A stretch of DNA of 64,000 nucleotides, taken from assembly GCA_964614405.1 (NCBI GenBank), contig CAZTLS010000012.1, forward strand, positions 1,678 to 65,677. The letters are read 5' to 3'. The notes beneath the pieces were generated by a model, which searched no databases, was not told the DNA's origin, and saw only the letters and a list, made by a program, of their open reading frames with translations. Positions 8,743 through 63,380 of the stretch are shown one piece after another. Both the position numbers and the translations under genes were made by a program. Origin of the DNA: an uncultured Pleurocapsa sp. (lineage in GTDB: Bacteria > Chloroflexota > Anaerolineae > Aggregatilineales > Phototrophicaceae). The first letter of the stretch is position 1. Every line of letters begins with the position of its first letter.

Positions 8743-8915
8743 TCGCAGGGTGAATGCCGCTCATTCCTGCGTCGGAGCAGTCAGGCGGTCTGGCGTCACG
8801 CTGCGCCGGGTCAGGGTCGGCTGACCTGGCTGCGTCGTGGTAAGCATTCACCCACCAGCCGCGTCTGTGGAGACGTATGATGACGGTCACTCCGATTATG
8901 AAAAAAGGGAAGTTG

Positions 8916-9692
8916 ATGTCCGACCCATTCCTGACCCTGACCGATGACACGCTGGACGAAGTGCTGATGAGCGATCGCCCGGTGATGATCCTGCTCACCA
9001 ACGGCGATGGCTTGCGCGGCGATTTCAGGACCGCCTTCAACAAAGCCGCTGCTGAGCGATCGGGCGGGGCGGTCTACGCCTACCTCGACCCGACGAAGAA
9101 CCCCCGCGCTGCTCAGCGCTTCGGGGTGGGCGACAAGCCGCTGCTGATCGGCTGGTACTGCGGCGAGGAAGTGCTGCGCCGTCCCCGACCCTGGGGCAGC
9201 GACCTGCCGCTGGCGCTGGAGCAGTTGCAGACGAGTGTGAAGGCGCGCACGCCCGATGGCGGCGCGATGAGCGATGATGACGCAAAGGATACGAACATGA
9301 CTGACACGGCGAACAAGCCGAGTGTGGTGTACGATGCGCCCGTCAATGTGACGGACGCCACGTTTGAAGCGGAAGTGCTGGACAGCGACCTGCCCGTGCT
9401 GGTCGATTTCTGGGCGGCGTGGTGCGGTCCGTGCCGGCAGGTCGCCCCGGTGCTGGACAAGCTGGCGAAGGAATTCGCCGGGCGGATCAAGATCGCCAAA
9501 GTGGACGTCGATGCCAACCCAGGCTTGTCGCAGGTCTTCCGCATTCAGAGCATCCCCAACCTGATGGTCGTCAAGAACCGCACGATCATCTTCAACCAGC
9601 CAGGCGCGCTGCCCGAACCGTACATGCGCGATCTGGTGCAGCAGGCGATCGATGTGGTCGTGCCGCCGCCCAAACCGCAGGTGGTCAAGTAA
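8916..9692 (+). CDS. Thioredoxin with an additional N-terminal CxxC-less thioredoxin-like domain
   Basis: C-terminal domain VDFWAAWCGPC..SIP; N-terminal domain has thioredoxin-like spacing (LTLTDDTLDEVLMSDRPVMILL) without the CxxC motif. Confidence 0.88.
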   Translation: MSDPFLTLTDDTLDEVLMSDRPVMILLTNGDGLRGDFRTAFNKAAAERSGGAVYAYLDPTKNPRAAQRFGVGDKPLLIGWYCGEEVLRRPRPWGSDLPLALEQLQTSVKARTPDGGAMSDDDAKDTNMTDTANKPSVVYDAPVNVTDATFEAEVLDSDLPVLVDFWAAWCGPCRQVAPVLDKLAKEFAGRIKIAKVDVDANPGLSQVFRIQSIPNLMVVKNRTIIFNQPGALPEPYMRDLVQQAIDVVVPPPKPQVVK

Positions 9693-9718
9693 GGGCATCA
9701 CGCCTGTATCAAAAACCG

Positions 9719-9757
9719 ATCCCCCTCAAGCCGCATGGCATGAGGGGGATTTTTTTT
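9719..9757. terminator. Intrinsic terminator between convergent genes
   Basis: ATCCCCCTCA...TGAGGGGGAT hairpin followed by a T-run, with an A-run upstream. Confidence 0.8.
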
Positions 9758-9762
9758 CTCCG

Positions 9763-10917
9763 TCAGAAGCGCCCGTTGAGCGAGTCGGCATAGCCGGTCA
9801 GCTCGGCATAGCCGAACCCGGTCACATCCCCGCTGAGGCGCACCGCGCCCTCCCAGTAGGCGATCCCGCTGCTGTGCAGTTCCTGATCCGCCATCATCGG
9901 GTCGGCGCGGAAGGTGAACGCCTCGCTGCCAGGCGGCGTCACGGTGACCGTCCACCCCGCCGGGTAGACCGCGCCCGTGTACGGACTCGCCCATGACCCG
10001 GTGGCGGTGATGGTGAAGCTGTCCGAAGGCAGGTAGGTCGTGCCACCGTCGGCGTCGATGAGCAAGCCGCCGAAATACGGGTCGCGCCCGCCGTCTCTGA
10101 GGCGAATCTGCCCGATCATCAGTTCGCGCCCGTCGTCGAACTGCAAACCGAACCAGTCCCAGCCGTAAGCGTCCCCGCCGAGCGCGCTGGTGCTGAATTC
10201 GTGATCCTTCCAGGTATTGCCGCGCACGGTGAACGTCTCGCCGCCGATGCGGATCGTGCCTTCGGTGGGCATCCGCGACAGGGTGTAGTAGTGGCTGGCA
10301 TTGCCTGGTTCGGCGCTTTTGGCGCTCAACCCGCGATCGCCCTGCAAGGCGGGCGGCTTGATCTGTTGCATCGTCAGGTCGATGGCGAAATCGCCTGCGT
10401 CGGCGGTGATGCGCCGCGCCGTCACCGCCGGGTCAAGCCCGGCGATCTGCCAGCCCTCCAGCCACACGCGCAGCGTCGGCTCCGTCTCCGCCCCGGCAAG
10501 CCCTGCCCCGCCGCGCACCAGACGCGACTCGTGCAGGTAGCGCCCCCCGGCGATGTCTGACACGCCGAAATGCGCCATGTAGACCTGATTGGTGCGCCAC
10601 TCCGACGCGCTGTCGGCGTTCTGCGCGCTGATGGCACGGCGGAAGATGGTGAACTGATAGCCGAAATGCCGCCCGTCGTCGGTTTGCAGGTTGCCCGTGT
10701 AATACCACCATTCGGTCTGATACTCCGGGTGCGCGCCAAAATCGCGCGGGAAGTCCCACTGGCGCGGGGCGAAGGCGCGGGCGAAGCCGGAAATGTCGCT
10801 TTCGCCGCGCAGCAGCACCGCCCCGCTCTCCACCGGGGCATCCCCGCCGCCGATCGCGCTGAACCCGGCGATCACCACCGCCAGCACCACCAAACCCGCC
10901 AGCACCAGCCGAATCAT
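9763..10917 (-). CDS. AttH/CrtC-like lipocalin-domain (carotenoid 1,2-hydratase family) secreted protein
   Basis: FPRDFGAHPEYQTEWWYYTGNL, WKDHEFS, GWDWFGLQ, YWEGAV, GYAELTGY; N-terminal signal or anchor. Confidence 0.88.
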   Translation of the reverse strand: MIRLVLAGLVVLAVVIAGFSAIGGGDAPVESGAVLLRGESDISGFARAFAPRQWDFPRDFGAHPEYQTEWWYYTGNLQTDDGRHFGYQFTIFRRAISAQNADSASEWRTNQVYMAHFGVSDIAGGRYLHESRLVRGGAGLAGAETEPTLRVWLEGWQIAGLDPAVTARRITADAGDFAIDLTMQQIKPPALQGDRGLSAKSAEPGNASHYYTLSRMPTEGTIRIGGETFTVRGNTWKDHEFSTSALGGDAYGWDWFGLQFDDGRELMIGQIRLRDGGRDPYFGGLLIDADGGTTYLPSDSFTITATGSWASPYTGAVYPAGWTVTVTPPGSEAFTFRADPMMADQELHSSGIAYWEGAVRLSGDVTGFGYAELTGYADSLNGRF

Positions 10918-11087
10918 ATCCGCCTCGCAGTTCGTTCACATCACCGTGTCGATCGTGAAAGATGGTACAAGGCGTGCATGAGCGCGGGCTGAGATTTGGC
11001 TGTGGGGATGAATGGGGATGGGGAAAAAGGGTACGGGCGGAGACATTGCCCCGCCCGTACCTGCTGCCTGAGGGTGCTGAAGGGGTT

Positions 11088-13229
11088 TTACCCTGCGCGA
11101 CCGACCAGTTCCACCGCGTCGATCTCGTTCCAGTTGCCGCCGATGCGCTGATCCAGCACGATCGTCACGGTATCGATCGGGGTGTTGACGCCGGTGATGT
11201 CTACCGTGAACACGCCTGGGCACGGGGTATTGCCTGGCGCGTCGGTGCTGTTCGGCAGGACGAACGTCTGCCCGGTGCGCGAATTGCCCACTTCCACGCG
11301 GATGATCGAGCCTGGGTTGTAGGTCTGGTAGATGTTCACCTGTGCCGGGATGACGGGGGTGGTGTAAGTCAGCGTCAGGCTGTCCTGACCGCGGCTGCTC
11401 GACGATGCCCACGCGCTGCTGATGTCACCGCAGGCGTTGGTGTTCGGTGCGCCGGTCGCCTGGGTGAAGCTCCAGCCGCTCGACCCGTACTGGCTGGTCC
11501 CTGTGGCGCTGGCTGCCCACTGGCGGATGGCTGCGCCCGCCGGGGAGGATGTCGCCGGGGCGTCGCTGAGCGAAACCAGGCTGTATGCGCCGCGACCGCC
11601 GATGCCGAGCTGGAACGCACCCGTCCCGGTGCGGCTGAAGCTGGTCGCCTCGATGATGTAGTTGCCACTGGTGGCGACAGCGAAATCACGAATGCGCGAA
11701 TTGAGCGAACCGAACTGCGCATCGCCGGAGTCGTCGTTGGTCACGAGAGGCTGCCCGTTGGGGTAGTTGGCTTCAGCGAACAGCGACAGGAAGGGGTCGA
11801 AGACGAAATTGACCGCTGCCAGTTCGAGGGTGATCACGTCGCCCGCCGCCAGATTGACGCGGTACGCCTGACGCGGGGCGTTCGTGGTCAGTTCGCCCTC
11901 GACGATGGCGCTGCCCGACACCAGTTCGGTCGGCACTTCGACGACGATCGGGGTCAGGGTGTATGCGCCGCGCCCGCCGATGCCCAGCTGGAACGCACCC
12001 GTCCCCAGTCGGCTCAGGCTGGTCGCTTCGATGATGTAGTCCCCGCTGGTGGGGATGGTCAGGGCGGCAATGCGCGAGTTGAGCGTGCCGAATGCCATAT
12101 CGCCGGAGTCGTCGTTGCTCGCCAGCGCTGCGCCGCTCGGATAATCGGCTTGGGCATAGATCGACAGGAAGGCATCGAATTCACGATTGACCGATGCCAG
12201 TTCGAGGGTGATCACGTCGCCCGCCGCCAGATTGACGCGGTACGCCTGACGCAGGGCGTTCGTGGTCAGTTCGCCCTCGACGATGGCGCTGCCCGACACC
12301 AGATTGGCGCGCGAGGTGATGGTGACCGGGATCAGGACATACGAGTTGTCTCCGCCGATGCCCAGTTGGAACGCGCCCGTGCCGATGCGGCTCAGGCTGG
12401 TGGCTTCGATGATGTAGCTGCCGCTGGTGGGGATGGTCAGGGCGGCAATGCGCGAGTTGAGCGTGCCGAACGCCATATCTCCGGAGTCGTCGTTGCTCGC
12501 CAGAGCTGCGCCGCCGGGATAATCGGCTTCGGCGTAGATCGACAGGAAGGCGTCGAAGGCGCGATCGACGGCTGCCAGTTCGATGGTGACGCGATCGCCC
12601 GCCGTCAGCTCGACGCGGTAGGTCTGCACCGGGGCAGTATTGGTCAGCTCCCCGTCCACGATGGACTTGCCAGACACCAGGTTGGTGGGGGTGGCGGGCG
12701 CTTCATAGCGGATGGTGGGCAGCAGCGTCTGCGAGAGGGTCGCGCCGGGGCTGTTCTGCACCACCTGCACCAGCACGAGGATGATCGCGCCGTCGATGTC
12801 CAGCGCGTACAGTTCAGCATAGCCGGACGGCACAGCCAGCGAACGCACCTTCGCCGTCACGCCGTTCAGACCATCCTGCGTGTAGGGGGTGATCGGCGCG
12901 CTGACGCGCAGTAAGCCCATGATCTCGCTGAGTGTCTGCTCCGGGTCGATCGGCGTCATGCCGATTTGGGCGAAAAAGCTGGGCGGGACGATCGACATGG
13001 CGACATCGGTCGGTGCGAGGGTCCCCTGCGAGTCGCGCAGCAGGGTCATGGCGGCGTCGCTGCTGCCCAGAATGATGCCGCCCTCCGGCGAGTTTTCTGC
13101 CTGCCAGCCGCTCGGCACGTTGACCGTCAGCCCGCCGTTCGAGTAGGTGCTGCCCTGTGCGGCAGCCATCGACGCCATGCCCAGCGCGCACACCAGCATC
13201 ACTGCCAGTGCAAAAAGAGACCGTTTCAT
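11088..13229 (-). CDS. Secreted protein with three tandem PPC (pre-peptidase C-terminal)-like repeats and a C-terminal discoidin-like domain
   Basis: Signal peptide MKRSLFALAV; three 126-aa repeats with FD(A/P)FLS..NDDSG..NSRI..SG.YIIEATS; C-terminal QWAASATGTSQYG..NEIDAVELVG. Confidence 0.8.
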   Translation of the reverse strand: MKRSLFALAVMLVCALGMASMAAAQGSTYSNGGLTVNVPSGWQAENSPEGGIILGSSDAAMTLLRDSQGTLAPTDVAMSIVPPSFFAQIGMTPIDPEQTLSEIMGLLRVSAPITPYTQDGLNGVTAKVRSLAVPSGYAELYALDIDGAIILVLVQVVQNSPGATLSQTLLPTIRYEAPATPTNLVSGKSIVDGELTNTAPVQTYRVELTAGDRVTIELAAVDRAFDAFLSIYAEADYPGGAALASNDDSGDMAFGTLNSRIAALTIPTSGSYIIEATSLSRIGTGAFQLGIGGDNSYVLIPVTITSRANLVSGSAIVEGELTTNALRQAYRVNLAAGDVITLELASVNREFDAFLSIYAQADYPSGAALASNDDSGDMAFGTLNSRIAALTIPTSGDYIIEATSLSRLGTGAFQLGIGGRGAYTLTPIVVEVPTELVSGSAIVEGELTTNAPRQAYRVNLAAGDVITLELAAVNFVFDPFLSLFAEANYPNGQPLVTNDDSGDAQFGSLNSRIRDFAVATSGNYIIEATSFSRTGTGAFQLGIGGRGAYSLVSLSDAPATSSPAGAAIRQWAASATGTSQYGSSGWSFTQATGAPNTNACGDISSAWASSSSRGQDSLTLTYTTPVIPAQVNIYQTYNPGSIIRVEVGNSRTGQTFVLPNSTDAPGNTPCPGVFTVDITGVNTPIDTVTIVLDQRIGGNWNEIDAVELVGRAG
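11547..12680 (-). repeat. Three intragenic tandem repeats, 378-bp period
   Basis: Equivalent Leu codons of LVSG at 12680, 12302 and 11924, each 378 bp apart; long identical DNA tracts. Confidence 0.9.
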
Positions 13230-24361: not shown

Positions 24362-24441
24362 ACCTCACCCCGGAAACCTGGCGGTTTCCTGCCCCTCTCC
24401 ATCGGTGAGGGGCGGTTGAGCGCAGCGAAACGGGGTGAGGT
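24362..24441. repeat. 80-bp palindromic intergenic repeat (REP/MITE-like), copy 1
   Basis: ACCTCACCCC...GGGGTGAGGT terminal inverted repeats and internal hairpins; reverse complement of the copies at 35757 and 45127. Confidence 0.9.
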
Positions 24442-30940: not shown

Positions 30941-31014
30941 CGGGGCGTAGCGCAGCTTGGTAGCGCGCAGTGTTCGGGTCACTGAGGTCGTGGGTTCAAA
31001 TCCCGCCGCCCCGA
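30941..31014 (+). tRNA. tRNA-Pro(CGG)
   Basis: Cloverleaf with CGGGGCG acceptor, anticodon stem CAGTG/CACTG and loop TTCGGGT, T-loop TTCAAAT; CCA not encoded. Confidence 0.96.
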
Positions 31015-32075: not shown

Positions 32076-32084
32076 ACATCTATT

Positions 32085-32257
32085 CACACCGAGAGCGCAG
32101 CGCACACGCTGCCGCCGAAGGGGCAAGCCGATCCGCACAGGCTGGGGCGGGCGGGCGAAACTCTCAGGCTTCCGGGAGGTGTGAAGCGCGGTATGTTCTG
32201 AAACCGGGCGCACCGCCGCCCGTGACAGAGCGCACAGCAGCCTGCTGTGCGCTTTTT
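32085..32257 (+). promoter_or_regulatory. Glycine riboswitch (singlet) with overlapping intrinsic terminator
   Basis: GAGAG..GCCGAAGG.GCAA..AAACTCTCAGG..GACAGAG consensus upstream of gcvH; GCGCACAGCAG/CTGCTGTGCGC-T6 terminator overlaps the 3' end. Confidence 0.85.
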
Positions 32258-35756: not shown

Positions 35757-35836
35757 ACCTCACCCCGTTTCGCTGCGCTCAACCGCCCCTCTCCGATGGA
35801 GAGGGGCAGGAAACCGCCAGGTTTCCGGGGTGAGGT
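35757..35836. repeat. 80-bp palindromic intergenic repeat, copy 2
   Basis: Reverse complement of 24362-24441 with one substitution. Confidence 0.9.
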
Positions 35837-45093: not shown

Positions 45094-45227
45094 CCTCACC
45101 CCGGACCTCACCCCGTTAACCGCCCGACCTCACCCCGTTTCGCTGCGCTCAACCGCCCCTCTCCATCGGAGAGGGGCAGGAAACCGCCAGGTTTCCGGGG
45201 TGAGGTCGGGGTGAGGTCGGGGTGAGG
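45093..45227. repeat. 80-bp palindromic repeat copy 3 (core 45127-45206) with two extra terminal-repeat copies on each side
   Basis: ACCTCACCCC at 45093, 45105 and 45127; GGGGTGAGG at 45197, 45208 and 45219. Confidence 0.9.
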
Positions 45228-45266: not shown

Positions 45267-47762
45267 TCAATCCCGCCGCCAGAAGAAGAGCAGGCGGCGC
45301 AGGAAGCGGGAGAGGATCGTCCCGCGTGCCGACTCCCAGGCGTCATCCGCCGTGCGCTGCGTCTGAGCGCGGGACACGCGCCGTCCGCCGTAGCGTTCGC
45401 GCGTGTACAGGCGGGTGATGGCGGTGATCGGGGCTTCGGCAGCGGGCAGTGCGCGCACGATGCGGACGCGCCGTTCCTCCGGCGTGCTGGTCGGCTCTGG
45501 CTTGAAGCCCACGAGCGCGGCATAGCGCATCAGGCGGGCGTAGGCGCGCGAGATCGGGCTTAAGCCGCGCATCCCGCGCCATTCCCACCACCAGTAGAGG
45601 ATCGCCAGCAGCAGCACGATCAGCAGGATGAGCAGCAGCAGCGCTGCCAGCGCGATGATGGCGGGCAGCAGCGCGCCGAACGGGTTGTCGAGATCGGGAT
45701 TGGGCGGCGTTGGCGGCAGCGGAGGCGGCACGGTGGGCTGCACGAACGGCGTCGGCGTGGGCGTCGGTTCGGGCGTGGCGGTCAGCGACGAGAACGGGTC
45801 AGGCGTTGCGCCTGGCGGCGGGGGGAGGGTGGGCGTGCTGGTCGGCGTGGGCGTCGGCGTGCTGGTCGGCATGGAAGTCGGCGTGATGACGACCTCGCCC
45901 TGACGGTTGGCGTCGCTTTGCGGGGTGAGCGGCGGCTGGGCGGCGGTCGGCTCGAACTCGACCCAGCCATAGCCTGGGAAGTAGACCTCGACCCAGGTGT
46001 GCGCGTCGCGTTCGCGCACGACGAACACCCCGCGCACCGGGTCGTACTGCCCCTGAGCGAAGCCGGCAGCCATGCGCGCCGGGATGCCCAGGCTGCGAAG
46101 CATGACGACCATCGCCGAGGCATAGTAGTTGCAGTAGCCCTCACGATGGGTGAAGAGGAACCAATCGACGGCATCCTGACCGATCGGCGGCTGGGGGATG
46201 GTCTCGTTGTAGCGCATGTTCTGGCGCAGCCACGTCTCGATTGCGACGGCGCGATCGTAAGGCGTGGTGGCGTTGGCAGCGCGCACGATGTCGTTGGCGA
46301 GCTGGATGGTGCGCGCGCTGACGGAGGGCAGGTAACTGTTGTAGAGTTCGCGCACCCACGCGGGGTAGCGATCGCCCGCCGCGCGCAGTTGATCCGGCTG
46401 GGCGGTGCTGACGAGGCTGGTGGCGCGGTAGGACTCGCCGCGCGTCAGCACGCGCAGCGGGCGGATGACCGAGATGTGCATGTTGGTATCGACGAGGTTG
46501 TCATCCGGCGTGAAGCGCAGATCGGTGCGGGTGGGCAGGTCGATGCTGAGCGGCTGCGGCGCGGTGTAGAGGATTTGCGTGCCGCTCATCGCCAGGGTGA
46601 AAATCTGGTTGACGGCGGTGCGCGCGCCGGGCAGGTACGTCTCGTGTTCGATGAGCAGCGGCGGCTGGGTATCGGTCAGACGGGTATCGGGCAGCGACGA
46701 CCAGCGCCCGTTGTCGTACACGTCGAAGCTGCGCGATTTCCAGTAGTAGCGGCGGTCGGGCGGAGCGGAGACGAGCAGCACCGGCTGATCGCCCAGGCGC
46801 ACCGCGCCGCCGAGCGTCATGTTGTCGCTGCCGTAGTACTCGGAGGTGGCGGGACCGGTCACATCAGCGCTGGCGAACAGGCGGTTCCACAGTTCGGCGA
46901 GCTGCACCAGCGCGTCGCCCTGCATCGCTTCCTGAAACTGCTGCAGGCGCGTCTCGATGTCGCGCTGGGGGATCGACCAGGCGAATGTGCCGACCAGCAG
47001 GGCGAAGAGCGCGCCCAGCGCGAGGAACTGCCAGCGCAGGCGGCGCGGCGCGCGCACCTGATGGATGTACCACTCCCATTCGCGCGCTTCCAGCGTCGAG
47101 CGCACCAGCAGCAGCAGCACCAGAAAGAAGAAGACGATCAGGAAAATATCCAGGCTGCGCGTGCCGACGTAATAGATGTGGTTGGTGAGCAGCACGATCG
47201 CCAGCGGCAGCACCCCGCGCCACACGCGGTCGATGCGGAAGATGTGCCAGACCGCGTTGAAGCCCAGAAACCAGAACAGGCTGGACATGATCAGGGTGAA
47301 GACCAGCGGATCCTGATTGATCCCCCCGGCGAGCGCGTCGTACACCCATTCGCCCAGCCGGACGAAGGTGTCGAGCAGCGCCGCGCCCAGCGGACGCGGT
47401 TCGTACAGCGCGGTGATGACCAGGGTGAACACCCCGCCGTAGACCACGCTGATCAGCAGGCAGAGGATTTCTCCGTACTGGCTGCGCGCCAGCAGGAAGC
47501 TGAAGAGCGTACTCAGCACGATGACCGGGAACGCCACGCGCAGATCGACCATCCAGCCGGCGGCGTTGAGCGCCAGCAGCGGCGTCAGCGTCAGCCCGGC
47601 GGCGACCAGCAGCATGATCACATCGCTGAGGGAAAAGGTATGCCGCAGCCCGTCACTCAGGCGGGTGAAGAAGCGCCCCAGGCGCGCCTGCGGGGAAAAA
47701 GCGTGAGTTGTCATCCGTTGCGTTTGTATTCCTGCATATGAACGGTGGCTGCCCGATGACAT
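45267..47762 (-). CDS. Membrane transglutaminase-like protein (TgpA family; DUF3488 + transglutaminase + DUF4129)
   Basis: TM N-terminus, YYWKSRSFDVY, GYCNYYASAMVVMLRSLGIPAR, AHTWVEVYFPGYGWVEFEPT, ITRLYTRERYG. Confidence 0.92.
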   Translation of the reverse strand: MSSGSHRSYAGIQTQRMTTHAFSPQARLGRFFTRLSDGLRHTFSLSDVIMLLVAAGLTLTPLLALNAAGWMVDLRVAFPVIVLSTLFSFLLARSQYGEILCLLISVVYGGVFTLVITALYEPRPLGAALLDTFVRLGEWVYDALAGGINQDPLVFTLIMSSLFWFLGFNAVWHIFRIDRVWRGVLPLAIVLLTNHIYYVGTRSLDIFLIVFFFLVLLLLVRSTLEAREWEWYIHQVRAPRRLRWQFLALGALFALLVGTFAWSIPQRDIETRLQQFQEAMQGDALVQLAELWNRLFASADVTGPATSEYYGSDNMTLGGAVRLGDQPVLLVSAPPDRRYYWKSRSFDVYDNGRWSSLPDTRLTDTQPPLLIEHETYLPGARTAVNQIFTLAMSGTQILYTAPQPLSIDLPTRTDLRFTPDDNLVDTNMHISVIRPLRVLTRGESYRATSLVSTAQPDQLRAAGDRYPAWVRELYNSYLPSVSARTIQLANDIVRAANATTPYDRAVAIETWLRQNMRYNETIPQPPIGQDAVDWFLFTHREGYCNYYASAMVVMLRSLGIPARMAAGFAQGQYDPVRGVFVVRERDAHTWVEVYFPGYGWVEFEPTAAQPPLTPQSDANRQGEVVITPTSMPTSTPTPTPTSTPTLPPPPGATPDPFSSLTATPEPTPTPTPFVQPTVPPPLPPTPPNPDLDNPFGALLPAIIALAALLLLILLIVLLLAILYWWWEWRGMRGLSPISRAYARLMRYAALVGFKPEPTSTPEERRVRIVRALPAAEAPITAITRLYTRERYGGRRVSRAQTQRTADDAWESARGTILSRFLRRLLFFWRRD

Positions 47763-47864: not shown

Positions 47865-48241
47865 GTTCAAGCGCGCCAGGTGATCGCGGTTCGGCATTGC
47901 CGGGCTGAGGAAAGTCCGCACTCCACAGGGCACGGTGCTGGCTAACCGCCAGGCGGAGCGATCCGACGGCAGAGTGCAACAGAGAACAGAGTGCCGACGC
48001 GGCGGGGGCGCACCCCGCTGCGGGCGAGGGTGAAAAGGTGGTGTAAGAGACCACCAGCGCGATCAGCGATGGTCGCGGCTGGGCAAACCCCACCGGGAGC
48101 AAGGTCAAGCAGGCGCAATGGGGCTGCCCGTCCCGCGCCGGGTAGACTGCACGATGCGCGCAGCAATGCGCGTACCAGAGAGATGATCACCCCGTCCGCT
48201 TCGGCGGGCGGACAGAATGCGGCTTATCGGCGGGCTTGAAC
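47865..48241 (+). ncRNA. rnpB: RNase P RNA (bacterial type A)
   Basis: GAGGAAAGTCC, AGTGCAACAGA, GGGTGAAA.GGTGGTGTAAGAGACCACC, GGGCAAACCCC, ACAGAATGCGGCTTAT; termini GTTCAAGC/GCTTGAAC pair (P1). Confidence 0.96.
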
Positions 48242-48349
48242 ACGCTTTTGCGCGCCGCGATCAGATAGCGATGTGACCGTTGCCATACCTGCAACACCTG
48301 CGCTGTACAGTGACAGCATCGTTCACTGTCAGACCGGGAAGCGGATACA

Positions 48350-49372
48350 ATGGCGGTCATCGAGCATCTGTACATCGATCAGTTCGGGGCGTTCGTGGGC
48401 AAGACGAGCGAACGCATCATCGTCACGGTCAAAGGCGAGCGCCTGGCGCAGGCTCCCCTGATCTACCTGCAAACGATCACCATCGCTTCGGACGGGGTGA
48501 GCCTCTCCAGCGACGTGGTGAGCGCGTGCAGTGAACGCGGCATCCCCCTCTTTTTCACAGACAGCATCGGGTTTCCGGTCGCCAGCTTGTATGCCGACGG
48601 GCTGAACGCCACGATCGTCACGCGGCGTGAGCAGCTCCGGGCGTATGACGATGCGCGCGGCGTGCATGTGGGCTGCGCCATCGCCGCTGGCAAGATCGAC
48701 AATCAGGCGATCACCCTGAAATATTTCGCCAAACATCGACAGCATACCCCGCACGGTGCGGCGCTGCTGAGCGCCAGCGATGCGGTGCGCGAGGCGCTGG
48801 GGCTGATCGATGCAGCGCGGTCGGCAGCGCACATCGATCAGGCGCGCCAGACGATCCTGACCGCCGAAGGCATGGCAGGGCGGGCGTACTGGGCGGCGGT
48901 GCGCCCGCTCGTCCCAGACGACTATGCCTGGGAGAGCCGGGAGACGCGCGGCGCGACCGACCCGATCAACAGCCTGCTCAACTACGGCTATGGCGTGCTG
49001 CGCAGCCACATCGAACGCGCGCTGATGTATGCCGGGCTTGACCCGTTCGGCGGCTTCATCCATGCCGATCGCCCCGGCAAGCCCAGCCTGACCCTCGACC
49101 TGATCGAGGAGTTCCGGCAAGTATGCGTCGATCGGGTGGTGATCGGGCTGGTCAACCGGCAGTTCCGCGTCGAACAGGTTGAGCAGGGCTTGCTCGCATC
49201 CGAGACGCGCCGGGCGCTCGCCGAACACCTGCTCAGCCACCTGAAAAGCACGGCACGCCACAACGGGCAGAAGCATCCGCTGGGACACATCATCCAGATG
49301 CAGGCGCGCGAACTGGCGGCGTACCTGCGCGGCAGCCGCCCGGCATATATCCCGTTCCGGGCGAGCTGGTGA
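48350..49372 (+). CDS. cas1: CRISPR-associated endonuclease Cas1
   Basis: EG..GRAYW, DPINSLLNYGY, GLDPFGGFIHADRPGKPSLTLDLIEEFR; catalytic E/H/D-E residues present. Confidence 0.96.
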   Translation: MAVIEHLYIDQFGAFVGKTSERIIVTVKGERLAQAPLIYLQTITIASDGVSLSSDVVSACSERGIPLFFTDSIGFPVASLYADGLNATIVTRREQLRAYDDARGVHVGCAIAAGKIDNQAITLKYFAKHRQHTPHGAALLSASDAVREALGLIDAARSAAHIDQARQTILTAEGMAGRAYWAAVRPLVPDDYAWESRETRGATDPINSLLNYGYGVLRSHIERALMYAGLDPFGGFIHADRPGKPSLTLDLIEEFRQVCVDRVVIGLVNRQFRVEQVEQGLLASETRRALAEHLLSHLKSTARHNGQKHPLGHIIQMQARELAAYLRGSRPAYIPFRASW

Positions 49373-49378
49373 GCGGCG

Positions 49379-49666
49379 ATGCGCGTGCTGGTGCTGTATG
49401 ACATCACCCACGACGGAGCGCGCGGCAAGGTGGTGCAGGCGTGCGAAGATTTTGGGCTGGAGCGGGTGCAGTATTCGGCATTTGCCGGGCTGCTCTCGCG
49501 TCCGCACCAGCGTGAACTGATGGCGCGCGTGCGGCATGTGATGCGTCAGAAAGTGGGCATCATCACGCTCTACCCGATCGGCAAAGACGCCTGGGAAGCG
49601 CAGATCGAGGTGCGGTGTGAGGCACAGCTGGCGGAGTCAGAGGAGGACGAAGATGGAGATGGATGA
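49379..49666 (+). CDS. cas2: CRISPR-associated endonuclease Cas2
   Basis: VLYDI..R.KV..C.DFGLERVQYSAF. Confidence 0.94.
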   Translation: MRVLVLYDITHDGARGKVVQACEDFGLERVQYSAFAGLLSRPHQRELMARVRHVMRQKVGIITLYPIGKDAWEAQIEVRCEAQLAESEEDEDGDG

Positions 49667-50243
49667 CCTCGAACGCCTGGTGACGGTGGAAGACCTGAAG
49701 CAGCACGTGTACTGTGCGCGCATCACGTGGTTCGCGCGCTGCCTGCATCGGCTGCGCCCGCGCACGCACAGCATGGAAGCGGGCAGAGACGATCACGAGG
49801 AGGCGCGCTTCAACGCCAGACGGCGATCGCTGACCGCGCTGGGTGTGGAAGACGGGGAGCGCGCGTTCGACGTGCAGGTGATCGACCGCGAACTGCGGCT
49901 GCGTGGCAAACTGGACGAGGTAGTGACGAGCGCCGCTGGCGAGATCATCCCGGTCGAATACAAAGGCGCGCGCAAACTGGCGGATCATCATCGCGTTCAG
50001 GTGGCGGCGTATGCGCTGCTGCTGGAGCGGCGATACGGCATCGCGGTGACGCGCGCGTATGTCTACCTGATCCCGCTGCGTAAGATGCGCGCCCTGACGA
50101 TCACACCGGGAGACAAGGCGCGCGTGCTGGCGATACTGGAGGTGGTGAAGGCGACGAACACGGCGGAGATGCTGCCCGCCCCGACGCCGGAACGCGAACG
50201 GTGTGCGGCGTGTGAATTCCGACGCTTCTGCAACGACGTGTAA
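49653..50243 (+). CDS. cas4: CRISPR-associated protein Cas4
   Basis: DLKQHVYCAR, RecB-like GKLD..VEYK, QVAAYALLL, C-terminal CAACEFRRFC (four Fe-S Cys in total). Confidence 0.94.
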   Translation: MEMDDLERLVTVEDLKQHVYCARITWFARCLHRLRPRTHSMEAGRDDHEEARFNARRRSLTALGVEDGERAFDVQVIDRELRLRGKLDEVVTSAAGEIIPVEYKGARKLADHHRVQVAAYALLLERRYGIAVTRAYVYLIPLRKMRALTITPGDKARVLAILEVVKATNTAEMLPAPTPERERCAACEFRRFCNDV

Positions 50244-50264
50244 GGGGTGGCAATGCCTGCCGCG

Positions 50265-50313
50265 ACCTCACCCCGGAAACCTGGCGGTTGAGCGCAGCGA
50301 AACGGGGTGAGGT
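50265..50313. repeat. Internally deleted (49-bp) copy 4 of the 80-bp repeat
   Basis: Same ends as copy 1 but lacking 31 bp between two GCGGTT microhomologies. Confidence 0.88.
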
Positions 50314-50338
50314 TGCGATAGGGGCAAGGAGACGCCTT

Positions 50339-52189
50339 CTACGCCTGCGGCGCGATCACCAGTCGATTGAACACCTCTGGCTGGCGCGCCAGGATCGCGG
50401 ATGGGTCTGCCTGAATCGTCTCATAGTCGTAGGCGGGCACGCCGTAGGTGGTCATCGTCAGCACACCGTCGGCGGCGATGTCGAACTCCGTCCAGCCGAA
50501 GCTGTGCCCCAGCAGCATCTCCCCCTCGCTGCTCAGCAGGTTGATCCGCCCGTTGTCCAAGCCGAGCGTCGGATAGCCCTGCGCCTCGTTGACGAAGCGG
50601 TCGAACAGCGCGCGGGTGAGCGCGTCTTTGACGTGAATGTCGCCCGCCTCGTATGCCGCCGCAGTCTCGGCATCGACCAGGTTGAAGCGGCGCGCGCCGT
50701 CGAAGATCGCCTGCCCCGTCGGCGGGTAGAAGCCGAGCGAGCCGGTGCTGATCTCGAACGCTCCGGTGGGGATCATCGCGCCGCCTGGCTCATCCTGATA
50801 GACCAGCGTGTTGATGAACGTGGTATGCACGTCCGCCGAGACGAACACCACATTGCGGATGGCATTCTCTTCGATGAAGCGCAGCAGTTCGGCGCGTTCG
50901 TATGCCACGCCTTCGATGCGGTCGTTGCCGCCCAGCCAGCCCATGTTCTGGATCGGCTCCGGGATCAGCACGAATTTCCACAGCACGCCCGCGTCATGCG
51001 CCGCCAGCAGGTCTCGCTTGAGGTCGTCCATCTGCGTGCGACCGAGGAACGTCCGCCCAGGCGTGAAGAAGCTCTCCAGATAGGCGCGCAGGCGCGTCTG
51101 GTTAAACACGCTGATCGTCGGGATGTCGGGCAGGTTGGCATCGCGGAACGAGCGCGTATCCAGCACGAACACAGCGGCGTCTGTGCCATACGTCTGGGCG
51201 CGGTAGAGCTTCGGGCGTCCGTCCATGCGCGCATCGCCCGTGCCCGCGTAGTCCTCAGCGAGGGTGGGGTTGTACTCGCGGAAGACCTGCAACCCGTTGA
51301 CGTACAGCGGCGTCTGGTTGAGCAGCGTCCCGGCTTCGCCCGTGAAGCGCGCATCGGACTCGACAGGCGCACCGCCCGCGAAATCGTTGGTCACCTCATG
51401 ATCGTCGATGGTGACGAACACCGACGTGACGGCGCGCAGGGCTGCCCAGAAATTGACCCCGTATGCCGCGCTGTACACCTCAGCGTGCTTGCGGCGGAAC
51501 TCGGTCAGCGTGGTCGCCTGTTCAGCGGGCACATCCGGGGTGGGGATGTCGGCGTAGATCGTGTCGCCGTGCTGCACGAAGAACGCCAGATCGCGGTCCG
51601 GCGCGTTGGCGATGCCGACATACGGGCGCAGTTCACCGCGCCAGTCGCCCGTGACGCCGAAGCGCAGCCCGGCGCGCGGTGCGCTCGCCTCCGCTGCCGT
51701 CACGAACCGCCCGACCAGCGACTCGCCCGCCGCGTTGGTGACGCGCCAGATGTAGCGTGTGCCCGGCTGCAAGCCGTCGATGACCACTTTGACCGGGATG
51801 AGCGGGTCGTCCGCCGAGGCGGTGGCGCGGGCGATCACCGTACCGAACGTCTCGTCCGCCGCCACCTCGAACACGACTTCGCCTGGCGCGGTGCTGCGCG
51901 TCCACAGCACGGTGCGGGTGGCGGTGGTGTCGCCGCTGGCGATGCCATTCGGCAGGGTGGCGGTGCTGGCGTCGGCGGCGGGGCGCAGCCTGGCGTCCAG
52001 CGTGACGGGGTGGGCGTGGGCATAGGCGGCTGCCCCGGCGCGCAGCAGGGCAGCGGCGGCTGCGCCTGCGCCCATCAGCCGCAGAAAGTCGCGCCGCGTG
52101 ACGGTGGTGGCGAACTGGCGAAACGCCTCGCTCTCGATGCGCGTCCAAAGCGTGGTGTAGTTGAACCCGATCTGCGTGTGGTCATCCAT
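50339..52189 (-). CDS. Alkaline phosphatase D (PhoD) family, Tat-exported
   Basis: TRRDFLRL twin-arginine signal, GIASGD..VLWTR, GDTIYAD, DDHEVTND, LDTRSFRD, ADVH. Confidence 0.9.
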   Translation of the reverse strand: MDDHTQIGFNYTTLWTRIESEAFRQFATTVTRRDFLRLMGAGAAAAALLRAGAAAYAHAHPVTLDARLRPAADASTATLPNGIASGDTTATRTVLWTRSTAPGEVVFEVAADETFGTVIARATASADDPLIPVKVVIDGLQPGTRYIWRVTNAAGESLVGRFVTAAEASAPRAGLRFGVTGDWRGELRPYVGIANAPDRDLAFFVQHGDTIYADIPTPDVPAEQATTLTEFRRKHAEVYSAAYGVNFWAALRAVTSVFVTIDDHEVTNDFAGGAPVESDARFTGEAGTLLNQTPLYVNGLQVFREYNPTLAEDYAGTGDARMDGRPKLYRAQTYGTDAAVFVLDTRSFRDANLPDIPTISVFNQTRLRAYLESFFTPGRTFLGRTQMDDLKRDLLAAHDAGVLWKFVLIPEPIQNMGWLGGNDRIEGVAYERAELLRFIEENAIRNVVFVSADVHTTFINTLVYQDEPGGAMIPTGAFEISTGSLGFYPPTGQAIFDGARRFNLVDAETAAAYEAGDIHVKDALTRALFDRFVNEAQGYPTLGLDNGRINLLSSEGEMLLGHSFGWTEFDIAADGVLTMTTYGVPAYDYETIQADPSAILARQPEVFNRLVIAPQA

Positions 52190-52256
52190 CGGCTGTGCCG
52201 CTCCCTGACTGTGTGGACAAGCCCCTCGACTGTACCGCGCGGGCGTTAAATCGCGG

Positions 52257-53975
52257 TTAAGCGGCGGGCGGGCGCAGCCGATCGCGCAGCAGGCGCGCCA
52301 GCCACACCAGCACATCCAGCCGCAGCAGCAGCGCCGCCCCACCGTACAGCCCGACGCTGACCACGCCGATCGCGCCCACAAGCACGATCTCGCCGACGAT
52401 GCGCCGTGTGTCCAGCAGTTCCGGCACGACCGCCATCACCGCCAGCGCCCCGCCCGCCATGACCAGCGCCGCCGCACTCGCCTTTGCCAGCGTCAGCAGC
52501 ACGCGCTGATCGCCGAAGCCGCCCAGCCGCCGCGCCAGCACGAGCGCGCTCAGCACGGCATGGACGATGTGCTTCACGCTGTCGGCGACCATCAGGCTGA
52601 AGATGCCCAGCGTCGGCACGAGCAGCAGCGCCGTGACCATGTACACGATCAGGCTGATCAAGCCGATCAGCGCCGGGGTGAGCGTATCCTGACGGGCGTA
52701 GAAGGCGTACACCAGCAGCAGATCGACGGCGGCGAACGGCAAGCCGAACAGGTACAGCCGCAGCGCCAGCGCCGTCACCTGGGTGTCCGCCTGGGTGAAC
52801 GCCCCATGCTCGAACAGCAGGTCGATGATCGGCACGGCAGCGGTGAACAAGCCGATCGCCGCCGGGATCATCAGCGCGATCGCCAGTCGCAAGCCCAGAC
52901 CGAGGGTATCGCGGAAGGCGCGTTCGCCCTCGCCGTCGGTCTGTGCTGCCTGGCGCGCCAGCGTGGGCAGGATGGCGATGCTGATCGCTGTCGCTACCAG
53001 CCCCTGCGGGAACTGGATGAGGGTGGTCGCCCAGTTCATGTAGCTCAGGCTGCTCTCCCCGGTCTGGCTGGCGAGGTTGTAGCTGAAGACGCGCACCAGC
53101 GCATCGAGGATGAGCGACGCCATGACGGGCAGGTAGAGCAGAGCGATGCGCCGCACAGCGGGGTGACGCCAGCGCAGGGTGAAGCGCAGCGATCCGGCGC
53201 GCAAGCCTGGCAGTTGCAGCGCCATCTGCACGGCTGCCCCGAACAGCCAGCCGATCGCCGCCGCCTGAATGCCCCATGCCGGGCGGTCGATCAGCCAGGT
53301 GGCGCGCGTCGGTGCGACGGCGACGAACACCTCCAGCGGCGGGGTGAGCGCCAGAGTCGCCACCACCACACAGGCATTGAACACCGCCCCTGCCAGCGCC
53401 GGGAAGGTGAACGACCGCAGCGCGTACAGTGTGCCGCTCAGCACGGCGAACAGGCTGAGGAAGAGCATCGCCGGAGCGGTGATCCGCAGCAGATCGACCG
53501 CCAGCCCCTGTGTGCGCGCGTCATAGCCGCTGCCGACCAGATTGACGACCGCCGGGGCGAACAGCACCAGCAGCAGCACGATTGCCGCCATGACCACCGT
53601 GACCAGGCTGACCAGCACCGACACCAGCCGCCACAGCGCCGCCTGCCCCTCGCGCGTGACCACCTCGCTCAGCACCGGGATGATCGCCCCGTTGACATGC
53701 CCACCGATGAGCAGGTCATACAGCGTGCGCGGCACGAGCGTGGCGACGAAGAAGGCGTCGGTGGCGGCGGATGCGCCGAACAGATTGGTCAGCACCACAT
53801 CGCGCGCCATGCCCAGCACGCGGCTGGCGATGTTGCCCAGCGCCAGCACCCCGGTCGCGCGGGCGACCTGGGCATTGGTCTGTGCCTGAGTTTCGACGGC
53901 TTCGTGCGGGGTGATCTCGTCCAACGGTAGCAAACCCTGTGCATTGGCGGCGCGCAAACCGGACAAGCATAGCAC
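52257..53975 (-). CDS. murJ: Lipid II flippase MurJ (MviN)
   Basis: SRVLGMARD, DAFFVA..VP, GAIIPV, YMNWATTLIQFPQG, FEHGAF, FYARQDTLTP; true start probably downstream (e.g. TTG at 53924). Confidence 0.93.
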   Translation of the reverse strand: MLCLSGLRAANAQGLLPLDEITPHEAVETQAQTNAQVARATGVLALGNIASRVLGMARDVVLTNLFGASAATDAFFVATLVPRTLYDLLIGGHVNGAIIPVLSEVVTREGQAALWRLVSVLVSLVTVVMAAIVLLLVLFAPAVVNLVGSGYDARTQGLAVDLLRITAPAMLFLSLFAVLSGTLYALRSFTFPALAGAVFNACVVVATLALTPPLEVFVAVAPTRATWLIDRPAWGIQAAAIGWLFGAAVQMALQLPGLRAGSLRFTLRWRHPAVRRIALLYLPVMASLILDALVRVFSYNLASQTGESSLSYMNWATTLIQFPQGLVATAISIAILPTLARQAAQTDGEGERAFRDTLGLGLRLAIALMIPAAIGLFTAAVPIIDLLFEHGAFTQADTQVTALALRLYLFGLPFAAVDLLLVYAFYARQDTLTPALIGLISLIVYMVTALLLVPTLGIFSLMVADSVKHIVHAVLSALVLARRLGGFGDQRVLLTLAKASAAALVMAGGALAVMAVVPELLDTRRIVGEIVLVGAIGVVSVGLYGGAALLLRLDVLVWLARLLRDRLRPPAA

Positions 53976-57090: not shown

Positions 57091-57095
57091 GGGTG

Positions 57096-57480
57096 TGGAG
57101 GTGCAGGGAGTCGCACCCTGGTCCGCTGGACTCGAAGCCGCGCTTCTACAGGTTTAGCTGTCCGTTGAGTCTCGCGGAGTGTAGCCCCGGACAGCCCGGT
57201 ACGCACTCCGCCAGCCGATGGTTCTTTGGTGACCGTTTATCGGCGTGACGATCACCGCACTCCACCATTAGTGACGCCCGCCGATCGATCCGGGTGGAGC
57301 CGAACCGGGCGGACGGCTGGGTTACTCTGACCCAGCACCCGCGCTTAGCGCACCTTAGGCGGCGTAAGCGAGAGCAGGACGACTGCTGTTGGCAGTTGAT
57401 TGCTTGCCCATTTTTACGTGGTTGAGCGCCACGACCTGCCACACGGAGTCAGCCTCCAACGTCGAAGCTGGTTCACCCCC
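57096..57480 (-). ncRNA. ssrA: tmRNA; tag peptide ANSSRPALAYAA* (57393-57355)
   Basis: Minus strand 5' GGGGGTGAACCAGCTTCGAC, 3' CAGGG-TGCGACT-CCCTG-CACCTCCA; G3-U wobble; ATCAACT-GCC resume context and a tag ending in AA. Confidence 0.95.
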
Positions 57481-63307: not shown

Positions 63308-63380
63308 GGGCCTGTAGCTCAGCTGGAAGAGCGCTTCAATGGCATTGAAGAGGTCAGGGGTTCGAGTCCCCTCTGGTCCA
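63308..63380 (+). tRNA. tRNA-Ala(GGC)
   Basis: Cloverleaf with anticodon loop ATGGCAT, G3:U70 Ala identity pair and T-loop TTCGAGT; U6:U67 mismatch; CCA not encoded. Confidence 0.96.

Follow-up and report, generated by a model that had tools for sequence, protein, structure and literature searches.

We consider it very probable that an ancestral, contiguous type I-B CRISPR-Cas locus was split in this Anaerolineae (Chloroflexota) genome, and that its adaptation genes cas1, cas2 and cas4, displaced to a position directly behind the RNase P RNA gene rnpB, serve effectors and arrays in trans. The genome is a MAG of 147 contigs and 4.15 Mb, with a completeness of 98% and an estimated contamination of 3.5%. 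The stretch of 64 kb that was analysed (the window) belongs to a 73-kb contig, C12, on which the adaptation module lies at least 21 kb from either contig end.

The adaptation module and its site

Features of the window are listed by position and strand.

45267..47762, minus strand: gene for a transglutaminase-like membrane protein (TGase; PF01841, DUF4129), divergent from rnpB
47868-48242, plus strand: rnpB, complete class A bacterial RNase P RNA (RF00010, 253 bits, model positions 1-367)
48246..48249, plus strand: T4 tract just past the 3' strand of helix P1, the sole terminator-like feature between rnpB and cas1
48270..48311, plus strand: candidate promoter/operator segment of the module, from the ancestral cas6-cas1 spacer, carried along with the module
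48279-48295, plus strand: 17-bp imperfect palindrome GTTGCCA-TAC-CTGCAAC, followed by 10 nt and then the -10-like hexamer
48306-48311, plus strand: -10-like TACAGT, 10 nt 3' of the palindrome
48350-49372, plus strand: cas1, type I-B-like, 340 aa, intact (PF01867 E 9e-68; TIGR00287 E 9e-72)
49379-49666, plus strand: cas2, intact (PF09827 E 6e-15; TIGR01573; best PADLOC model Cas2b)
49653..50243, plus strand: cas4, RecB-like nuclease with a 4-Cys cluster, intact (TIGR00372 E 3e-31; PF01930)
50266..50312, no strand assigned: REP element, palindromic, 47-nt short form of a repeat dispersed genome-wide with a usual length of 78 nt
50339..52381, minus strand: phoD-like phosphatase gene, convergent, an unrelated neighbour (PF09423, PF16655, TAT signal)

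Profile matches, motifs and a hairpin search bear out what had been read from the sequence alone, namely that intact cas1, cas2 and cas4 genes begin 108 nt after rnpB on the same strand, with no obvious terminator between them. Cas1 scores 242 bits against TIGR00287 (cut-off 72) and its best PADLOC model is Cas1b (E 2e-83). Residues E173, H238, D250 and E253 are kept together with all other columns that are invariant among 17 homologues, and there is one singleton deviation, compared with 0-4 in the other 16. The longest open reading frame of cas4 spans 49617-50243; the true start is likely the ATG at 49653, because this fits both the alignment of homologues and the 196-aa product recorded for the assembly GCA_034436095.1. 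An N-terminal Cys, a C-terminal CxxCx5C and the D, ExK and QxxxY motifs of Cas4 are visible in the sequence. The gene cas2 begins 6 nt past cas1 and overlaps cas4 by 14 nt, and the three genes lie in one operon. The module has the characters of a type I-B adaptation module, a Cas1 integrase fold with its catalytic residues and co-encoded Cas2 and Cas4, and not those of a degenerate cas remnant, as the reading frames are full length and there is no excess of deviations at conserved sites.

Both junctions of the module are genuine. A Logan contig from SRR12977061 is 100% identical to window positions 48026-49502 and spans the rnpB-cas1 junction, and a contig of GCA_034436095.1 matches positions 49173-52026 with one mismatch, spanning cas2, cas4, the REP element and phoD. 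The concern that the contig might be misassembled at these points is thereby met by two independent assemblies. GCA_034436095.1 also contains the effector operon and the type III-D module described below.

The rnpB gene is present in a single copy, and the divergent TGase-rnpB pair is kept in essentially all same-genus relatives; the TGase gene is a conserved core landmark outside the CRISPR system. Only this side of the locus is conserved, and the regions 3' of rnpB do not align among relatives. The genes of the window between 50.3 and 64 kb were not found within 1.5 kb downstream of rnpB in any of 30 relatives, phoD lies beside rnpB in no relative compared, and no empty, pre-insertion site downstream of rnpB could be reconstructed from the relatives. 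No integrase, transposase, tRNA or significant flanking repeat was found at the site of the module. A 7-nt direct repeat, GCCGCGA, occurs on both sides of the segment and was judged not significant because the genome has 65% GC. The shortened palindromic repeat and convergent phoD previously noticed 3' of cas4 proved to be the 47-nt REP form followed by phoD. This element has 55 exact-core copies over 33 contigs, among them 32 of the 78-nt and 5 of the 47-nt form, and more than 100 BLAST matches in the genome. Its short form closes the relocated segment on the right, at a place taken by a CRISPR leader and array in relatives.

Effector genes, arrays and common ancestry

In the sequence-only reading the module had neither array, cas6 nor effector gene. 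This holds for the 64-kb window, and the rest of the 73-kb contig is likewise free of arrays and other cas genes, but it does not hold for the genome, where compatible arrays and both I-B and III-D effectors lie on contigs C37, C75, C13, C113 and C73. Positions 1.3-9.2 kb of C37 contain a complete type I-B effector operon, consisting of a WYL regulator, cas8b, cas7b, cas5b, cas3 and cas6, with profile matches to Cas8b (E 2e-99), to Cas3b with HD and helicase domains (E 3e-176) and to Cas6 (E 1e-64). The second assembly has this operon too. Behind cas6 the operon closes with a truncated cas6-cas1 spacer copy, and a MITE/REP element comes next; the portion of C37 past the MITE has the support of one assembly only. 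A type III-D module (Cas10, three Cas7, Csx10, Csx19 and two CARF proteins) is found on C75, where it has neither its own adaptation genes nor its own cas6 or array. Based on tblastn and a PF01867 scan of this 98% complete genome, the window copies are its sole cas1, cas2 and cas4, and this one module would have to supply both the I-B and the III-D effector modules.

At C13:1-3580 there are 49 repeats of GCTTCAATCTACTCGACCCGCTTGAGGGTACTGAAAC with spacers of 32-38 nt, C113 ends in a leader and first repeat, and C73 starts with a degenerate repeat. One repeat family is common to all three, and it is identical to the repeat of the relative locus L084 at 30 of 37 positions. The leader-repeat junction (GCAGGCG followed by GCTTCA) is conserved with respect to the relative; the likeness of the C113 leader is confined to the last 7 nt and the repeat, and no cas4 remnant was found upstream of this leader. 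The leader-proximal repeat of C113 is a CTAATC variant that is found in none of the 49 repeats of C13 and is shared by the C73 remnant. If C113 and C13 form one array, then no spacer has been added since the CTAATC mutation; the presence of the variant in C73 rather suggests that there is a second array, largely missing from the assembly. Several spacers fall on the same targets, an indirect indication of repeated acquisition at some time. When compared with the organism's own genome, the spacers gave no matches past chance 17-19-mers. A k-mer scan also flagged C22, C91 and some smaller candidates, all of which consist of coding sequence repeated in tandem and are not CRISPRs. A search of the JGI metagenomes with the leader junction gave no matches, and one with the repeat returned one phage-like contig.

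We compared the module with 80 related Chloroflexota loci collected with an alignment-based search. Their usual order is WYL-cas8b-cas7b-cas5b-cas3-cas6-cas1-cas2-cas4-array, with cas6 directly upstream of cas1 in 57 of the 80 (median gap 69 nt), and the closest relative loci read cas3-cas6-cas1-cas2-cas4-leader-array with a near-identical repeat. For each of the nine proteins, six from C37 and three from the window, the best match (56-76% identity) comes from L085, a single contiguous locus, which points to the split of one ancestral locus. In the tree, the window's Cas1 groups with those of L084 and L085 in a clade nested among the Cas1 proteins of contiguous I-B loci (SH-aLRT 100). The 14-mer CCATACCTGCAACA has only two copies in the genome, after cas6 and before cas1, and its L084 counterpart sits between these two genes. 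The GC content of the module (65.3%) is close to that of the C37 operon (65.2%). About half of the same-genus genomes are without this Cas1, so loss is common. The linkage of rnpB and cas1 is found in none of 40 relatives, and rnpB lies within 10 kb of the cas1 locus in none of the 80 loci.

These comparisons bear on how the module was originally viewed. It had been called stand-alone, with a possible place in a solo Cas1 clade; its cognate I-B effector operon is on C37, and its Cas1 falls inside the contiguous I-B clade and in no solo clade. A solo Cas1 or casposon-like identity was rejected on these grounds and on the presence of effectors and arrays in the genome, and the proposal that the module was repurposed for another function finds no support. 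It had also been foreseen that relatives might carry the module attached to a full cas operon and array, reducing the present copy to a simple remnant. The relatives do carry it so, yet every part of the system is still intact elsewhere in the genome, so that the module is no decaying remnant. The notion of an adaptation hub serving remote arrays agrees with the compatible arrays on other contigs and with the sole cas1-cas2-cas4; the activity in trans itself we infer.

We propose an ancestral locus with all parts adjoining, arranged as WYL regulator-cas8b-cas7b-cas5b-cas3-cas6-cas1-cas2-cas4-leader-array. A segment of ~2 kb, from just past the cas6 stop to just past the cas4 stop, would have moved directly 3' of the TGase-rnpB landmark, with the effector operon staying on what is now C37 and the leader and arrays coming to lie elsewhere again (C113, C13 and C73). 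Spacer integration by Cas1-Cas2 would take place at the repeat next to the leader of the remote array or arrays, with Cas4 acting in PAM selection and trimming. The single Cas6, encoded on C37, would process the array transcripts, and the crRNAs may arm both the I-B Cascade/Cas3 and the type III-D complex of C75.

Expression and fate of the displaced module

The candidate promoter/operator lies 38-71 nt upstream of the cas1 ATG. The pattern GT[TC]GC-N3-ACCTGCAAC has only three matches in 4.15 Mb, before the WYL gene (C37:1289), after cas6 (C37:9211) and before cas1, and all three are sense-oriented and upstream of or inside cas intergenic regions. The copy after cas6 is a truncated remnant, whereas that before cas1 is whole. 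The closest relatives L084, L085 and L087 have the element, again with 10 nt between palindrome and hexamer, in their cas6-cas1 spacers, and L085 carries it before the WYL gene too. Neither the C113 leader nor the region 5' of the III-D operon yielded a match to the operator motif. Since the palindrome and -10-like hexamer are limited to three cas sites, the module probably kept its own regulated promoter. A sigma-70-like match at 48322-48351 was set aside as the cas1 promoter because it overlaps the start codon. The 17-bp palindrome is common to the putative promoters of the module and of the WYL-regulator/effector operon, so that joint control of the two parts in trans may have outlasted their separation.

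Judged from the sequence, read-through from rnpB into the module is possible. We regard it as unlikely, however, that the module depends on rnpB, with most cas1-cas2-cas4 transcripts arising by extension of the abundant RNase P RNA precursor at its 3' end, constitutively and uncoupled from the effector operon. The genes are on the same strand, the gap of 107-108 nt contains no detectable hairpin-plus-T terminator and its folding is not unusually stable (z -1.2), and an independent assembly upholds the arrangement. Against this, the conserved promoter/operator-like element directly upstream of cas1, which moved with the module, makes read-through unnecessary, and the T-run after helix P1, found by alignment at the matching place in several same-genus relatives, may mark the 3' end of rnpB. 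Nothing suggests that the rnpB-cas1 linkage was selected, because it is absent from all relatives. The module would most likely be expressed from its own promoter, to which rnpB read-through may add.

A distinctly unlikely extension is that the split is itself a working arrangement, in which basal read-through from rnpB, a gene among the cell's most strongly and constitutively transcribed, would provide a constitutive floor of acquisition independent of interference, and the WYL-type operator held in common with the effector operon would allow one regulator to coordinate the unlinked modules. If true, this would be a natural, trans-regulated and dispersed bacterial CRISPR-Cas system serving I-B and III-D effectors.

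It is quite improbable that the split disabled adaptation and that the module is a non-functional leftover in the course of being lost. The Cas1 branch in the window is 2-3 times longer (0.31) than those of the two nearest relatives (0.10 and 0.17), which could reflect somewhat relaxed constraint, and the unmatched first repeat of C113 and the common loss of this Cas1 in the genus would also fit such decay. Yet none of the three reading frames is truncated, Cas1 deviates at no invariant column, the number of singleton deviations is equal to or below that of 13 of the 16 homologues, and the motifs of Cas2 and Cas4 are retained. The regulatory element is whole before cas1 and truncated after cas6; the effector genes, too, are intact, and the array runs to at least 49 repeats.

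Very improbable is an independent origin, by which the module arrived alone behind rnpB by horizontal transfer and the C37 operon separately lost its own adaptation genes. The two copies of the cas6-cas1 spacer have diverged and could reflect two related ancestral loci, and the synteny breakpoint 3' of rnpB is a place where foreign DNA could land. However, the nine proteins share their best relative locus at similar identity, the GC content of the module equals that of its flanks and of the C37 operon, and the site has none of the mobility-associated features searched for. An assembly or binning artefact (a chimeric rnpB-cas1 or cas4-phoD junction, or cas contigs from different organisms), to which the 147 contigs, the 3.5% contamination estimate and the dispersed repeat directly 3' of both cas4 and cas6 might point, is extremely improbable and already largely refuted by the two other assemblies and by the genome-specific REP element present on C12, C13 and C37.

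Relation to known systems

The split I-B locus is ordinary in kind and unusual in layout only, and it leaves the understanding of CRISPR-Cas unchanged. Cognate effector genes (C37) and a compatible leader-bearing array are present in the genome, as in type I-B systems; linkage to them, which is typical but not obligatory, is absent here and present in the relatives. A review of Sulfolobales describes one cas1-cas2-cas4 cassette and one Cas6 that supply a type I interference module together with several of type III, the latter located far from the arrays, and modules that are exchanged as units in evolution (Garrett et al. 2015, PMC4390879). Here, in contrast, the module adjoins neither array nor effector, and the host is a bacterium with I-B and III-D rather than I-A and III-B.

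The system fits the definition of 'distant' cas and CRISPR elements, which lie >20 kb from their cognate partner and have repeats compatible with cas genes in trans (Bernheim et al., NAR 2020, PMC7145637). In that survey, which also describes a single adaptation module common to several interference types, 88% of cas clusters were inside CRISPR-Cas loci, and splitting of a cas locus was argued to be unlikely, as it tends to inactivate a gene (PMC7145637). In the present genome the cas locus itself is split, cleanly at module boundaries. As with solo Cas1, casposons and effector-less cas1-cas2, Cas1 is encoded apart from effector genes; unlike casposons and solo Cas1, there are no PolB or terminal inverted repeats, and cognate effectors and arrays are in the genome.

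In practical terms, the whole genome should be consulted before an adaptation module that looks orphaned in a 64-kb window is interpreted. The case also shows, in nature, a bacterial cas locus that came apart cleanly and exactly between its interference, adaptation and array parts, every one of them intact. We compared it with canonical Chloroflexota type I-B loci such as those of Anaerolineae bacterium H113_104, CFX9, Anaerolinea thermophila and Thermanaerothrix daxensis. The same nine proteins (56-76% identity), the cas1-cas2-cas4 order and a repeat family ending ACTGAAAC are shared. In the canonical loci the parts are contiguous and the array lies ~250-900 nt past cas4, whereas here they are on separate contigs and the module is behind rnpB. 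Both cas1 and the WYL gene are preceded by the palindromic element in those loci too, and its position before both the WYL/effector operon and cas1 gives a testable hypothesis of WYL-type control of Chloroflexota I-B systems and of coordination between separated modules.

The adaptation module behind rnpB

A complete RNase P RNA gene in the window is followed on the same strand, after a gap of 108 nt, by intact cas1, cas2 and cas4 genes, all three assigned above curated profile thresholds.

Features of the rnpB-cas1-cas2-cas4 segment, and related repeats in the window
47868-48242 (+): rnpB, complete bacterial RNase P RNA (RF00010, 253 bits)
48279-48295: 17-bp imperfect palindrome GTTGCCA-TAC-CTGCAAC, inside the duplicated cas6-cas1 spacer
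48306-48311: -10-like hexamer TACAGT, exactly 10 nt past the palindrome and 38 nt before the cas1 ATG
48350-49372 (+): cas1, 340 aa (PF01867, E 9e-68; TIGR00287, E 9e-72)
49379-49666 (+): cas2, 95 aa (PF09827, TIGR01573)
49617-50243 (+): cas4, longest open reading frame (PF01930, TIGR00372)
50266-50312: REP (a dispersed palindromic element of this genome), 47-nt short form, directly beyond cas4
24363-24440, 35758-35835 and 45094-45205: further REP/MITE-like copies (>50 sites genome-wide)

The true start of cas4 is likely the ATG at 49653, because the N-terminus then fits the closest homologue and a 196-aa product is recorded for another assembly. In an alignment of 17 homologues, Cas1 keeps every invariant column, including E173, H238, D250 and E253. 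It stands alone against the rest at one column that is otherwise invariant, compared with 0–4 such deviations in the others. No terminator-like hairpin was found between rnpB and cas1, nor does the intervening sequence fold unusually (z −1.2). The profile matches and the hairpin search thus agree with the sequence-only reading, which was also accurate in reporting no CRISPR array within the 64-kb window and a palindromic repeat followed by a convergent phoD after cas4. Elsewhere, the window contains a tmRNA (57093-57480, −), a glycine riboswitch aptamer (32078-32190, +) and two tRNA genes (30941-31014 and 63308-63380, both +), all of them unremarkable Rfam hits that exceed the gathering score. 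A 378-nt tandem repeat at 11589-12686 (2.9 copies, 82% identity) is probably a repeated domain inside a large coding region.

Misassembly at these junctions, raised earlier as a possible refutation, is contradicted by other assemblies. Run SRR12977061 yields a Logan contig that matches 48026-49502 at 100% identity, from the 3' half of rnpB across the gap into cas1, and a contig of GCA_034436095.1 matches 49173-52026 with one mismatch, covering the end of cas1, cas2, cas4, the REP and phoD. GCA_034436095.1 also contains the effector operon described below, ending in the same motif-plus-MITE junction, and the FHA-leader region; its type III-D module lies beside ribosomal protein L33 on a 38-kb contig. 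Because independent assemblies agree, the junctions and the co-occurrence of the pieces in one organism are not artefacts of a single assembly or bin. The C37 stretch past the MITE is supported by only one assembly.

A divided type I-B locus

We searched the 4.15-Mb, 147-contig assembly (98% complete), in which the window corresponds to C12:1678-65677, for other CRISPR-Cas components. Neither tblastn with the three proteins nor a Pfam Cas1 scan found a second cas1, cas2 or cas4 in the genome.

CRISPR-Cas features on other contigs of the genome
C37: type I-B effector operon (WYL-HTH regulator, Cas8b, Cas7b, Cas5b, Cas3, Cas6)
C13:1-3580: CRISPR array, 49 repeats of GCTTCAATCTACTCGACCCGCTTGAGGGTACTGAAAC, spacers of 32-38 nt (k-mer scan)
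C113, end: leader (~295 nt) and first repeat
C73, start: REP element and degenerate repeat
C75:1833-11980 (−): complete type III-D effector module (RAMP scan)

Queries with effector proteins from relatives led to the C37 operon, which PADLOC models type as I-B (Cas8b, E 2e-99; Cas3 with HD and helicase domains, E 3e-176; Cas6, E 1e-64). The C13 array runs off the contig start on one side and ends in a degenerate repeat on the other; upstream of the C113 leader there are no cas genes but vWA and FHA genes. Remaining array candidates of the k-mer scan were rejected as tandem coding repeats. The C75 module encodes Cas10, three Cas7-type RAMP proteins (one of 836 aa), Csx10, Csx19 and two CARF proteins. 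No cas1, cas2, cas6 or array occurs on C75, and this module presumably borrows the crRNAs of the I-B arrays and the I-B Cas6.

All nine proteins (six from C37, three from the window) have their best match in one contiguous locus, L085 of Anaerolineae bacterium H113_104, at 56–76% identity, with the next relatives clearly lower for most of them. In a maximum-likelihood tree the window Cas1 forms a clade with those of L084 and L085 (SH-aLRT 100), both of which have cas6 upstream. In 80 Chloroflexota loci the genes recur in the order WYL-cas8b-cas7b-cas5b-cas3-cas6-cas1-cas2-cas4-array, and cas6 lies directly 5' of cas1 in 57 (gap 3–940 nt, median 69 nt). Anaerolineae bacterium CFX9 (G028), the closest relative in the same genus (Cas1 67% identical), carries on one contig cas3-cas6-cas1-cas2-cas4, a leader of ~250 nt and an array whose repeat is GCTTCACTTGTATCGACCCGACTGAGGGTACTGAAAC; another relative (G016) has the order regulator-cas3-cas8-cas7-cas5-cas6-cas1-cas2-cas4-array.

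The 14-mer CCATACCTGCAACA has two copies in the genome, one 20 nt past the cas6 stop on C37 and one 67 nt before the cas1 start, and its counterpart in L084 lies between cas6 and cas1. Homology of the two spacer copies extends from GATGTGAC, which overlaps the cas6 stop codon, to 10 nt past the palindrome. Beyond this point the C37 copy is replaced by a ~140-nt MITE/REP element, and the window copy continues into cas1. The right end of the relocated segment is within ~20 nt of the cas4 stop, where relatives have the leader and this genome the 47-nt REP. At 65.3% GC the module matches both the C37 operon (65.2%) and the flanking DNA. The protein matches, the Cas1 tree, the GC content and the junctions together indicate that a single ancestral, contiguous I-B locus was split, with the breakpoint still readable.

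The REP/MITE-like family (CCTCACCCCG...CGGGGTGAGG) has a common 78-nt form and a short one of 47 nt; a third, of ~140 nt, carries additional terminal inverted repeats (C37:9240-9380). In all, 55 exact-core copies are dispersed over 33 contigs. Members sit at several module boundaries, namely at the ends of cas6 and cas4, beyond the trailer of C13 and ahead of the C73 remnant, a distribution compatible with a repeat-mediated rearrangement behind the split.

The linkage to rnpB was not found in relatives. With nhmmer, rnpB lay within 10 kb of the cas1 locus in 0/80 loci, and in 40 relatives the two genes are on separate contigs or far apart. A full-text literature search found no paper describing them as neighbours. 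The divergent pair of rnpB and a transglutaminase-like membrane protein gene is kept throughout the genus and the sequence 3' of rnpB differs genome by genome, and the module is therefore placed at a synteny breakpoint beside a core landmark. At most three of the 80 loci have an adaptation unit but show no I-B effector in the flanking sequence retrieved (L103 with long flanks; L105 and L144 on short contigs). L103 (Chloroflexota bacterium AMR_MDS_5888) has a divergent WYL regulator gene and cas1-cas2-cas4 at 8231-11500, with no I-B effector gene or array detectable within 8–9 kb on either side, and may represent a second lineage whose adaptation module was displaced.

Expression of the displaced module

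The palindrome and hexamer upstream of cas1 recur in the same architecture between cas6 and cas1 in L084, L085 and L087. The same arrangement (GTTGCAG-CAC-CTGCAAC, 10 nt, TATGAT) lies upstream of the WYL gene at C37:1289-1305, ~62 nt before the homologue-supported start codon, and L085 likewise has it ahead of its WYL gene. The pattern GT[TC]GC-N3-ACCTGCAAC has three copies in 4.15 Mb, all cas-associated and in sense orientation. Its conservation and position point to a promoter whose operator would be bound by a dimeric protein; the WYL-HTH regulator is most plausibly the binder, and would control both the effector operon and cas1-cas2-cas4. With such an operator-promoter the displaced module would have brought its own regulated promoter, and rnpB would not be needed. 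The adaptation units that, in a few lineages (L086, L089, L121, L128), are permuted or divergent from the effector operon also fit an autonomous adaptation transcription unit.

Transcription from rnpB into cas1 is possible, given the shared strand, the 108-nt distance and the lack of a canonical terminator; the only candidate for a stop signal is a T4 run immediately past the 3' strand of helix P1, which recurs in several relatives. That such read-through is the main source of cas1-cas2-cas4 expression seems unlikely to us.

Proposed working of the dispersed system, and its arrays

With the I-B effector operon on C37 and arrays on C13, C113 and C73 of the same genome, a stand-alone reading of the module is not supported. 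Repurposing for another function is not supported either. The other earlier proposal, service to remote arrays in trans, fits. The module itself is an ordinary type I-B adaptation unit at an unusual place. In the proposed working, Cas1-Cas2 with Cas4 would capture protospacers and insert them into the remote array or arrays where leader and first repeat meet. The Cas6 encoded on C37 would cut the array repeats, probably leaving what we take to be the 8-nt handle (predicted as ACTGAAAC), and the crRNAs would load onto both the I-B Cascade/Cas3 and the III-D complex.

Dispersed, modular CRISPR-Cas systems in general are already well described. In Sulfolobales, type I and type III modules that lie elsewhere share one cas1-cas2-cas4 cassette and one Cas6 (PMC4390879). 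A survey of bacterial genomes defined 'distant' arrays and cas clusters that work in trans, as well as complex loci in which there is only one adaptation module; 88% of its cas clusters lay within CRISPR-Cas loci, and its authors argued that a cas locus is unlikely to be split (PMC7145637). This genome gives a bacterial example of a cas locus cleanly split at module boundaries. This split and the testable shared operator are the main points of note.

The leader-repeat junction GCAGGCG|GCTTCA is conserved between this genome and a relative. The first, leader-proximal repeat (C113:3063-3099) has the CTAATC variant, in common with the C73:45-69 remnant, whereas 49/49 repeats in C13:13-3580 have CTACTC and none CTAATC. 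This suggests either two arrays, one largely unassembled, or one array without growth since the mutation. Several C13 spacers overlap on the same target regions, as repeated acquisition would leave them, whether before or after the split.

A single exact copy of the organism's CRISPR repeat, in the CTAATC variant, also occurs at 2042-2078 of a metagenome contig (L174, JACCDR011726485.1). The contig is 2.2 kb long and phage-like, with small terminase-like, membrane, coiled-coil and LamG-like ORFs; the repeat interrupts an ORF, and the contig has no second repeat. Either the contig is a chimera that the assembly joined through spacer-repeat-spacer reads, or a virus carries the copy as a solitary repeat unit, possibly an RNA anti-CRISPR.
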